Shown in pieces: positions 26,444 through 26,584 of a DNA stretch of 64,000 bases. Numbering within the stretch: the first letter of the stretch is position 1; every line of letters starts with the position of its first letter. Origin of the DNA: Alphaproteobacteria bacterium (GTDB taxonomy: Bacteria; Pseudomonadota; Alphaproteobacteria; CAAHEQ01; UBA3637); contig JAZQUH010000015.1 in NCBI GenBank assembly GCA_045631185.1, forward strand, positions 7,346 through 71,345. The letters run 5' to 3'. The notes under the pieces are model-generated. The model was not told where the DNA came from. It ran no database searches and worked only from the letters and a program-made list of their open reading frames with translations. Both the position numbers and the translations under genes were made by a program.

Positions 26444-26584
26444 TTATTTAAACGAATAAACCCCACTGTAATCATACAGTGGGTCGGGTGTGCTGACGCA
26501 CAACTTAATATTCAAAAATAAATGTGTGTGTGTGTGTGTGTACAAGGTCCATTTATTTATACCTTTATCGTGGTTTAAATTCAT
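26444..26584 (-). CDS. Possible 46-codon upstream ORF/leader peptide containing the (CA)9 tract
   Basis: AAGGAG 10 nt upstream of the ATG at 26584. Translation: MNLNHDKGINKWTLYTHTHTHLFLNIKLCVSTPDPLYDYSGVYSFK*. Below the ORF-track size cut-off, so translated by hand. Confidence 0.35.
   Translation of the reverse strand: MNLNHDKGINKWTLYTHTHTHLFLNIKLCVSTPDPLYDYSGVYSFK
26462..26483 (-). promoter_or_regulatory. Perfect 9-bp hairpin in the leader of the second pilin-like gene (possible attenuator)
   Basis: Minus strand: CCCACTGTA-TGAT-TACAGTGGG followed by GTTTATTCGTTT. Confidence 0.4.
26523..26541. repeat. Dinucleotide microsatellite: (TG)9 on the + strand, (CA)9 on the minus strand
   Basis: Read directly: tgtgtgtgtgtgtgtgtgt. 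Confidence 0.97.

Follow-up and report, generated by a model that had tools for sequence, protein, structure and literature searches.

A (CA)n tract in a translated leader as a candidate frame-gated switch of pilin-like lectin genes in Alphaproteobacteria

Does a CA repeat that precedes a pilin-like gene in an alphaproteobacterial genome operate as a phase-variable switch and, if so, by which molecular route? The question is raised by a 64,000-nucleotide (nt) stretch of contig JAZQUH010000015.1 of Alphaproteobacteria bacterium (assembly GCA_045631185.1; hereinafter, the window), in which a (CA)9 tract lies on the minus strand, within a short leader open reading frame (ORF) upstream of a gene for a pilin-like protein with a lectin-like domain. 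An earlier note on this DNA proposed that slippage in the tract switches the gene, either because the stop codon of the leader moves relative to an attenuator hairpin or because the spacing of a promoter changes. All the sequence facts listed in that note hold on the minus strand, and a slippage switch that would act through the translated leader is well supported by the comparison of related sequences: the number of repeat units varies, a frame rule is followed, the start signals of the leader are conserved and, in one copy, the leader is fused to the structural gene. The branch of the proposal that invoked promoter spacing did not survive. In the scenario that we favor and consider somewhat probable, the leader ORF, flipped between frames by slippage in the (CA)n tract, would gate the downstream pilin-like lectin gene via a terminator-like hairpin, the second of the two hairpins in the leader.

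The leader cassette and its frame rule

The (CA)9 tract is the sole dinucleotide repeat of at least six units in the window, the next longest being a (CA)5 at 60196-60205, and the impression that it is the only long dinucleotide repeat in 64 kb was correct. The tract is translated as THTHTH within a 46-codon ORF that has its own ribosome-binding site (RBS), AAGGAG, 10 nt upstream of the ATG at 26584, all exactly as described before (the coordinates of the features are collected in Table 1). With n=9, the leader stops at 26446-26444, 32 nt before the ATG of the pilin-like gene at 26411, and the second hairpin together with its U-rich tail lies wholly inside the ORF. The hand translations of the two neighboring alleles were re-derived with the same outcome: n=10 ends in ...THTHTHIYF followed by TGA (26514-26512), and n=8 in ...THTHTFIFEY followed by TAA (26507-26505). 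The frame decides, then, whether the leader stops upstream of the stem-loop or beyond it. Taken alone, the 76-nt open frame after the tract in the window is not unusual (chance probability 0.18-0.27); it is the related copies that make the case significant.

Homologs of the pilin-like protein with 85%, 58% and 53% amino acid identity are encoded in other genomic contexts and are preceded by the same upstream region. The order of elements in this 5' cassette is conserved: promoter, RBS and ATG, leader ORF, TTGTA(CA)n, two hairpins, and the RBS and ATG of the pilin-like gene. A scan with the promoter motif across one genome per species detected 33 loci, 27 of which come from a single metagenome-assembled genome (MAG), Alphaproteobacteria bacterium SIG60; further copies of the leader are present in four other assemblies, in unrelated genomic contexts (L037 and L040 among them). 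SIG60 is closely related to the window organism; the two gyrB-leader regions are 91% identical at the nucleotide level, which makes L022 of SIG60 the ortholog of the window locus. Two scans of metagenome contigs, with a CA-flank pattern and with a hairpin pattern, yielded no match, although some of the leader peptides described below come from the Joint Genome Institute (JGI); the contig look-up for P0093 matched a paralog without the leader.

The conservation of the leader was quantified on an alignment of 27 copies over a 190-nt core. The leader is about 90% conserved at the nucleotide level, as against 32-58% amino acid identity among the products of the downstream genes. In the promoter, the -35 element is invariant, the TGC-TAGTGT columns are about 98% identical, and the spacer keeps a constant length of 17 nt at 76% identity; the segment between the start site and the RBS comes in three haplotypes. 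The ATG of the leader is invariant, and the GGAG(G) of its RBS is about 96% conserved, with flanks in three haplotypes. Codons 2-13 of the leader are variable, and since third codon positions are the most conserved, the sequence of the peptide apparently is not under selection; translation itself, rather than the peptide, appears to matter. In general, the pattern of conservation fits a set of required signals, in that the promoter, the RBS, the ATG and the hairpin stems are kept, whereas the spacer, the codons and the loops vary.

The frame logic proposed for the window is conserved family-wide. Whenever n is a multiple of three, the leader ORF is open through all hairpins and modules in every leader architecture, over lengths of 73-232 nt; this long frame is free of stops, whereas each of the other two frames contains one to nine over the same span. 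In most of the copies with the start in view, the distance from the long-frame stop to the main ATG downstream is 28-33 nt in leaders of the short type, to which the window copy belongs, and 15-17 nt in those of the medium and long types. In the other frames, translation ends right behind the tract, at a TAA 15 nt after it with n=5 or 8, and 2-8 nt after it with n=7 or 10, the divergent copy L002 being the exception. The architectures differ in length by 57, 57 and 39 nt, all multiples of three. By chance, a frame would stay open over 136 nt with a probability of 0.03-0.05 and over 232 nt with one of 0.01-0.02, values that are to be read with the relatedness of the copies in mind, few independent events being counted.

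One of the copies, L019, has no separate start codon for the structural gene; instead, the leader ATG reads into ...GGRSMVEMLG... at n=6 or 9, and the assembled copy has n=8, which puts it out of frame. This arrangement points to a classical coding-region switch and to multiples of three as the likely ON state: we take the direction of the effect from this fused copy, which is in frame only at n=6 or 9, together with the conservation of the frame.

When conceptual leader peptides were compared with 5.8 billion predicted proteins, more than 30 distinct open-frame leaders of 42-145 aa were retrieved, called as genes in public assemblies and extending the open frame to 134-145 codons, a search of this kind finding long-frame alleles only. 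These leaders carry either YTHTH (n=6) or YTHTHTH (n=9), and near-identical pairs, such as P0124 and P0150, differ by one TH pair. A locus adjacent to the HSP90 gene was seen repeatedly: in 13 contigs (L035 and L050-L058 are listed) its leader is of the medium type with n=6, and in L049 of the short type, also with n=6, whereas L003, in a similar HSP90-adjacent position, carries a medium-type leader with n=9. Judging from these sequences, the 3' modules of the leader appear to be exchanged between copies. This locus is in the open frame in every assembly seen, where the peptide-based look-ups are biased to open-frame alleles.

Among the 31 copies whose retrieval did not depend on the leader ORF, n=8 is by far the most common (23 copies), followed by n=9 in three (the window, L003 and L024), n=7 and n=5 in two each, and n=6 in one. 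Behind gyrB, the two orthologous loci differ in n, which is 5 in SIG60 and 9 in the window, and the 8-nt gap in their alignment coincides exactly with the tract; within the 190-nt core, indels are confined to the CA tract, apart from one 3-nt, frame-preserving indel in the loop of the second hairpin. Copy-number differences among related strains, which the earlier note had named as the check to be made, are thus present. The tract exceeds the length of five uninterrupted dinucleotide units that is used as the threshold for contingency loci (PMC2651432), its length differs between strains and paralogs with conserved flanks, and in silico a change in length alters the frame and the stop position of the leader and, in L019, the frame of the prepilin. 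We infer that such changes would arise by slippage within a population.

Could the tract and the leader ORF be merely relics of the 5' coding region of a prepilin of the L019 type, kept uniform by gene conversion, with n being neutral? The predominance of n=8 is what homogenization would give, and a leader far more conserved than the genes behind it, the occurrence of different leader haplotypes at one locus in different samples (L035/L049 and L021/P0135), and the unremarkable open frame of the window taken alone all agree with such an origin. A relic, however, would not account for one frame that stays free of stops through independent 57- and 39-nt insertions, up to 145 codons, nor for the retention of stops in both other frames right behind the tract; furthermore, the RBS and ATG of the leader are conserved amid varying neighboring bases, and almost all values of n that were observed are a single unit away from one that gives ON. 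We consider this explanation improbable.

Hairpins, promoter and the possible outputs of the switch

Two hairpins follow the tract. The stem of hairpin 1, GTTGTGC/GCACAAC, is about 99% conserved in the 27 copies and carries a 4-nt loop in six forms; the window copy contains one U-C mismatch, and the folding energy is -6.7 kcal/mol for the window and -9.3 kcal/mol for the consensus. Hairpin 1 possibly serves as a pause hairpin for RNA polymerase. In L026 (5937-6460), the most divergent leader copy of SIG60, which precedes a gene for a 97-aa protein that is not pilin-like, this stem shows one compensatory GC-to-AU change and one G-U change.

Hairpin 2 is a perfect 9-bp stem-loop, CCCACTGTA-TGAT-TACAGTGGG, at 26462-26483, followed by the tail GTTTATTCGTTT, as the earlier note described it. 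It was flagged by a terminator scan, and folding, which that note had recommended, gave about -15 to -16 kcal/mol (z = -3.8). Its stem, CCCACTGTA(T)/(A)TACAGTGGG, is about 100% conserved and 100% paired in the 27 copies, with nine loop forms. The two hairpins offer little covariation, namely a single compensatory GC-to-AU change plus two wobble changes (G-U and U-G), and 19 of 500 shuffles were equally good. The stems show constraint; the pair changes hint at RNA structure on the sense strand and are weak evidence for it. Masking of the main RBS by leader structure was considered and rejected, the probability of this site (AAGGAG or AAAGGAG) being unpaired ranging from 0.44 to 0.88.

Beyond hairpin 2, the leaders fall into a short type, which includes the window, a medium type, and two long types with nested palindromic modules. 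The medium type has an extra hairpin, hairpin 3 (-20.8 kcal/mol), followed by UUUUAAUU; it was not flagged by the terminator scan, and in our reading it takes the same terminator-like part as hairpin 2 of the window. The nested modules, such as GTCATTCTCGGACTTGATCCGAGAATCC and ATTCCCCATCAAGTGGGGAAT, are small palindromes found in SIG60 in L005, L007, L009, L015, L017, L020, L024 and L029. With lengths of 57 and 39 nt, multiples of three, and no stops in the long frame, they resemble palindromic elements that insert in frame. An additional AT-rich segment of about 120 nt is located between AAAGGAAC and the next RBS (aaaatttaaaaattatattaatgatgagcgttgttagcgaag...) in the SIG60 copies L005, L017, L025, L027 and L028; it follows the stop of the long frame, and all these copies lie near contig ends.

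The anatomy of the leader suggests how the switch might operate. Transcription would proceed from the conserved promoter at 26619-26647, and ribosomes would initiate at the leader ATG. With n a multiple of three, they would translate through the tract, both hairpins and the U-rich tail, and would terminate ahead of the pilin-like ATG, at a distance of 32 nt in the window or of 15-17 nt in the longer leader types; a ribosome moving behind RNA polymerase would keep the hairpins unfolded, such that the transcript would reach the gene and ribosomes would be released near its start, the ON state. With any other n, the TAA or TGA that follows the tract within 2-15 nt would release the ribosome, leaving 21-28 nt to hairpin 2; this hairpin would fold, and most transcripts would end at the U-rich tail, the OFF state. 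A single CA unit gained or lost during replication would flip the state. In the window, the stop lies 21 nt before the stem of hairpin 2 with n=8 and 28 nt before it with n=7 or 10, as opposed to 15 nt after it with n=9; the window allele is predicted to be ON, with translation overriding the terminator-like hairpin.

Published experiments render the terminator route plausible by analogy. In the pil1 and pil3 loci of Streptococcus gallolyticus, a (GCAGA)n repeat inside a leader peptide ORF sets the position of the leader stop (Danne et al. 2014; PMC3894217): expression is high if the leader stops within or after a terminator of -18.7 kcal/mol and low if it stops at least 28 nt upstream, and translation of the long leader was shown, with mutants of the ATG, the stop and the terminator, to prevent termination (PMC3894217). 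In Escherichia coli, shortening the distance between a stop and the terminator behind it from 28 to 5 bp by a 1-nt frameshift reduced termination from about 90% to less than 10% (PMC4824070), and in pyrBI, translation of the leader across the terminator prevents the formation of the terminator (PMC5021804).

Several observations weigh against this scenario. The predominance of n=8, an OFF length under the frame rule, could reflect homogenization by gene conversion rather than frequent independent slippage. Because the window encodes a full-length MutS (59287-61869, minus strand; domains I-V), mismatch repair is probably active, and 2-nt slippage loops would probably be repaired, lowering the rate of switching. 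Some paralogs have no leader altogether (L038 and L059), and in L018 and L032 the long frame is interrupted by a stop 44 nt short of the main ATG. With n=8, the stop lies closer to hairpin 2 (21 nt) than the 27-28 nt required for full termination in the two experimental systems. Hairpin 2 of the medium type is not followed by a U-tract, and the scan of the long leader types for a terminator-like site found none. The hairpin postulated as an attenuator looks like an intrinsic terminator in the short type, where the scan flagged it, and has no terminator-like counterpart in the long ones. Because the main RBS is strong and mostly unpaired, an intrinsic terminator cannot be the universal output, and because the long types lack a terminator-like site, a second route must exist or even be the general one: Rho-dependent polarity, RNA decay, or termination-reinitiation.

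The same frame-gated switch might indeed have an output other than a terminator, if an early stop exposed the leader to Rho or to RNases, or if termination-reinitiation were lost; hairpin 2 would then be a stabilizer, a pause site or a protein-binding element. The long types, in which the frame is open for 190-232 nt in the absence of a terminator-like hairpin, are readily accommodated by such an output, and so is the long-frame stop of the medium and long types, which precedes the main ATG by 15-17 nt and its RBS by about 3 nt, a spacing typical of translational coupling; coupling, however, is not needed for initiation at a main RBS that is strong and unpaired. Attenuation by Rho that depends on an upstream ORF (uORF) is an established class (PMC12360218), and the C/G ratio of the leader peaks at about 2, reminiscent of Rho utilization (rut) sites. 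The peak is seen only in those 78-nt windows that include the CA tract and falls to about 1 without it, and the stable hairpins that dominate the leader behind the OFF stops would hinder the loading of Rho. Given also that the short and medium types end in a hairpin and then a U-rich tail, we consider a non-terminator output rather unlikely.

A broader and tentative version of the proposal, which we consider possible but doubtful, is that the clade, uncultured Alphaproteobacteria, possesses across its genomes approximately 27 or more homologous leader-ORF switches that each independently gate one lectin-tipped pilin-like protein, giving a combinatorial surface repertoire, that palindromic insertions are tolerated as long as they keep the frame, that the cassette also works in leader types lacking a terminator, and that the output is a translation-dependent gate other than an intrinsic terminator, such as relief of Rho polarity or obligatory termination-reinitiation.

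The transcribed (CA)n might alternatively be recognized, in a length-dependent manner, by a small RNA (sRNA) or an RNA-binding protein, or might be a Z-DNA or recombination element. Folding predicts that the tract is largely unpaired within the transcribed leader, as would suit such a site, and in Helicobacter pylori the RepG sRNA targets a G-repeat in the tlpB leader in a length-dependent manner (PMC8295292). Nevertheless, a site of this kind predicts graded effects of length rather than a period-3 rule or conserved stop codons, the window shows no (UG)n partner, and a search of the leader region against Rfam gave no match at the gathering score, the permissive matches (E = 0.44-0.65) lying far below it. 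This explanation strikes us as very improbable.

The promoter-spacing route fares no better. The earlier note read the tract as the spacer of a promoter TTGTAC-N17-TTTATT; these hexamers are present as written and form a poor match, TTGTAC having three of six positions and TTTATT lacking the A at -11, and the promoter scan reported neither. If this were a second promoter, n would tune the distance between -35 and -10, as in hifA/hifB of Haemophilus influenzae, where dinucleotide switches in a promoter spacer are known (PMC2651432), and n=9 would indeed give the optimal 17-nt spacer. The tract, however, lies outside the -35/-10 interval of the conserved, near-consensus promoter, which is located about 80-120 nt upstream (-10 to -35), is invariant as TTGACA-17-TGC-TAGTGT, and from which transcription is predicted to start near 26612-26614. 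Moreover, n=6, which leaves an 11-nt spacer, is as common as n=9 among the open-frame leaders, both being open states, and spacing leaves the conserved start signals of the leader, the open frame and the L019 fusion unexplained. Accordingly, this route is disfavored, to the point that we give it hardly any credence.

Known switches of this kind and what the leader would add

The earlier note knew of no described case in which a leader peptide gated by a repeat is coupled to an attenuator; such a case has been described and tested, in pil1/pil3 of S. gallolyticus (PMC3894217). As in those loci, the repeat discussed here resides in a short leader ORF with its own RBS and ATG, downstream of a promoter, a stem-loop is located between the leader and the pilus gene, the repeat number determines whether the leader ends well ahead of the hairpin or only inside or past it, the device is found at two or more pilus loci of one genome, and repeat numbers differ among isolates. 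The differences are equally clear. The streptococcal repeat is (GCAGA)13-22 and the one here is (CA)5-9; the former controls a sortase-assembled pilus operon of a Gram-positive bacterium, and the latter a single type IV-pilin-like lectin gene of an alphaproteobacterium. In S. gallolyticus, the default frame gives a short leader and a frameshift in either direction turns the locus ON, whereas here only one frame in three is long; there are two loci in the former case and about 27 homologous copies of the cassette in the latter, with in-frame palindromic insertions and one direct fusion. Finally, the streptococcal device was tested by experiment, and the present one is a prediction from sequence comparison. 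The resemblance is one of analogy, not homology.

A leader ORF that extends through a terminator hairpin, where a closely following ribosome blocks the hairpin, is also found in pyrL of the E. coli pyrBI operon (PMC5021804, PMC4824070). The input of pyrBI is the pausing of polymerase that depends on uridine triphosphate (UTP), which is physiological and graded, as opposed to a heritable change of frame here.

Repeats also control surface proteins of other bacteria by simpler means. In the opa and pilC genes of Neisseria, the repeat is located in the region coding for the signal peptide, and the adhesins form multigene families with individual frame switches, most copies being OFF. L019 has exactly this arrangement, with the tract in the sequence coding for the prepilin leader peptide, in frame at n=6 or 9, whereas in the window and most other copies the repeat belongs to an upstream ORF distinct from the structural gene, and the latter starts from an RBS and ATG of its own.

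An upstream ORF with a repeat is known from lex2 of H. influenzae, where a tetranucleotide repeat lies in lex2A, and the glycosyltransferase activity belongs to the downstream lex2B (PMC3116884); lex2A, however, is treated as a gene of the locus rather than as a leader through an attenuator hairpin. The repeats of hmw1A (PMC12721329) and hifA/hifB (PMC2651432) in the same species also precede an adhesin or pilin gene, and that of hmw1A is transcribed, but they act differently: in hmw1A, a long RNA hairpin containing the repeat is cut by RNase III, with graded output (PMC12721329), and the (TA)n of hifA/hifB acts on the -35/-10 spacing (PMC2651432). Neither the hmw nor the hif system involves a translated leader ORF or a period-3 rule. 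Leaders, uORFs, untranslated regions and coupling all go unmentioned in a 2025 review that surveys a century of phase variation (PMC11868660).

The mechanism proposed here thus is of a known but rare kind; new are the lineage, the repeat unit, the type of pilin and the family-wide scale. The single case of repeat-gated leader-peptide attenuation described by experiment comes from a Gram-positive coccus. If the present proposal is true, a second, independent origin in a Gram-negative lineage, in front of dozens of adhesin-like genes, would turn an oddity into a strategy of general use, and in this uncultured bacterium a large repertoire of lectin-pilins would vary from cell to cell, which bears on colonization, on evasion of immunity and phages, and on breaks in assemblies. 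Two independent assemblies do break beside the tract (L001 and L046), and the 27-fold repetition of the leader explains these breaks equally well. The in-frame palindromic insertions would amount to a natural experiment on selection for the act of translation rather than for the peptide. The signature of the leader, a repeat in a conserved uORF of which one frame runs open as far as the next start while the two others contain stops, can be searched for in metagenome-assembled genomes.

The controlled protein and its genomic setting

Table 1. Coordinates of the leader, the gene behind it and the adjoining features in the window
Feature	Position	Strand	Remarks
gyrB ORF	26715-29117	-	From the ORF list; upstream neighbor of the leader
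gyrB terminator-like hairpin	26673..26693	-	ATCCCCGAAACTATCGGGGAT then CTTTTGTATA; 5' limit of the unit
Conserved promoter	26619..26647	-	-35 TTGACA 26647-26642; 17-nt spacer; TG 26627-26626; -10 TAGTGT 26624-26619
RBS of the leader ORF, AAGGAG	26595..26600	-	10 nt before the leader ATG (26584)
Leader ORF (uORF), 46 codons at n=9	26444..26584	-	Peptide MNLNHDKGINKWTLYTHTHTHLFLNIKLCVSTPDPLYDYSGVYSFK, then stop
(CA)9 tract, proposed slippage switch	26523-26540	-	Extra A at 26541; n=9 is the long frame
OFF-frame stops	26505..26514	-	TGA 26514-26512 (n=7/10); TAA 26507-26505 (n=5/8/11)
Hairpin 1, GTTGTGC-GTCA-GCACACC	26487..26504	-	One U-C mismatch in the window copy
Hairpin 2 and U-rich tail, candidate premature terminator	26450..26483	-	Stem-loop 26462-26483; tail GTTTATTCGTTT 26461-26450
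RBS of the main gene, AAGGAG	26419..26424	-	7 nt before the ATG; P(unpaired) 0.88 in the window leader
Controlled gene, 419 aa	25152..26411	-	Pilin-like N-terminus G/RSMVEMLGVLAIIGVL, Cys-rich middle, C-type-lectin-like C-terminal domain

The label "pilin-like adhesin" is reasonable for the protein encoded behind the leader, as judged from profile comparisons and a structural model. The prepilin-like motif G/RSMVEMLGVLAIIGVL scores 13.3 bits with the Pfam N_methyl profile, below the cut-off of 21.2, and the NCBIfam profile for prepilin-dependent pilins gives 16.9 bits against a cut-off of 138. A profile of the family, when compared with the PDB, matched a fimbrial protein (E = 0.005) and the C-type-lectin-like domain of Langerin (E = 5e-4). 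In the AlphaFold2 model (pLDDT 72), a long N-terminal helix (residues 16-64) precedes a sheet, and the top Foldseek matches are all C-type lectin domains (probability 0.99, E about 1e-2). The family includes 1193 relatives, nearly all of them unnamed proteins of metagenome-assembled Alphaproteobacteria. Among the paralogs, the N-terminal half of about 190 aa is nearly identical and the Cys-rich and lectin-like part differs, a pattern typical of variable adhesin families. Exact look-ups of the pilin-like protein of the window, of its GyrB and of P0004 found no match, and neither a prepilin peptidase nor assembly machinery was recognized among the ORFs of the window that were scanned.

The window has the appearance of an alphaproteobacterial chromosome of low GC content (39.8%). 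The local gene order is dnaN-recF-gyrB, leader, pilin-like gene, recA, RNase P RNA and parC; an operon of the size of a mur/fts operon and the genes for UvrA and UvrC, in addition to MutS, are also located within the window. The RNase P RNA, of bacterial class A, between recA and parC, is found at 23568-23941 on the minus strand with 265.8 bits. In the assembly that contains L039, with an identical RecA, recA lies directly beside gyrB, and both the leader and the pilin-like gene are missing, so that the comparison of L039 4001-7508 with window positions 24063-29117 reveals a presence/absence polymorphism of this pair. In other assemblies, different pilin-like genes adjoin recA, and pnp-rpsO takes the place of parC on the other side.

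The window also encodes a first pilin-like protein, of 751 aa (15942-18197, plus strand), with the N-terminus MNKKNTSQIGRTLFETILVLIVMGIISIG and a long Cys-rich C-terminal part. Its gene has no CA leader, its upstream region is unrelated, and the search for a second copy of the leader within the window found none. A paralog that lacks the CA leader, in L059/L060 (1170-1500), keeps a similar -10 region (TGCTAGTCT), behind which is a different, apparently structured 5' region of about 300 nt.

An invertible promoter of the Mpi type was considered for the leader cassette and rejected, since in about 30 copies no consistent inverted repeat links the leader with the 400 nt that precede it. Elsewhere in the window, a serine recombinase of the master DNA invertase Mpi family is encoded at 7196-7834 on the minus strand (284.9 bits against a cut-off of 272), adjoining the genes for a helix-turn-helix protein and two glycosyltransferases (6265-6786 and 4185-6272, both on the minus strand, are listed with it). 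The 410-bp gap at 6787-7195 contains the two 14-nt arms of an inverted repeat, at 6876-6889 and 7074-7087, which are 86% complementary and separated by 184 nt; this repeat may represent an invertible promoter and, by implication, a second, unrelated phase-variation system.

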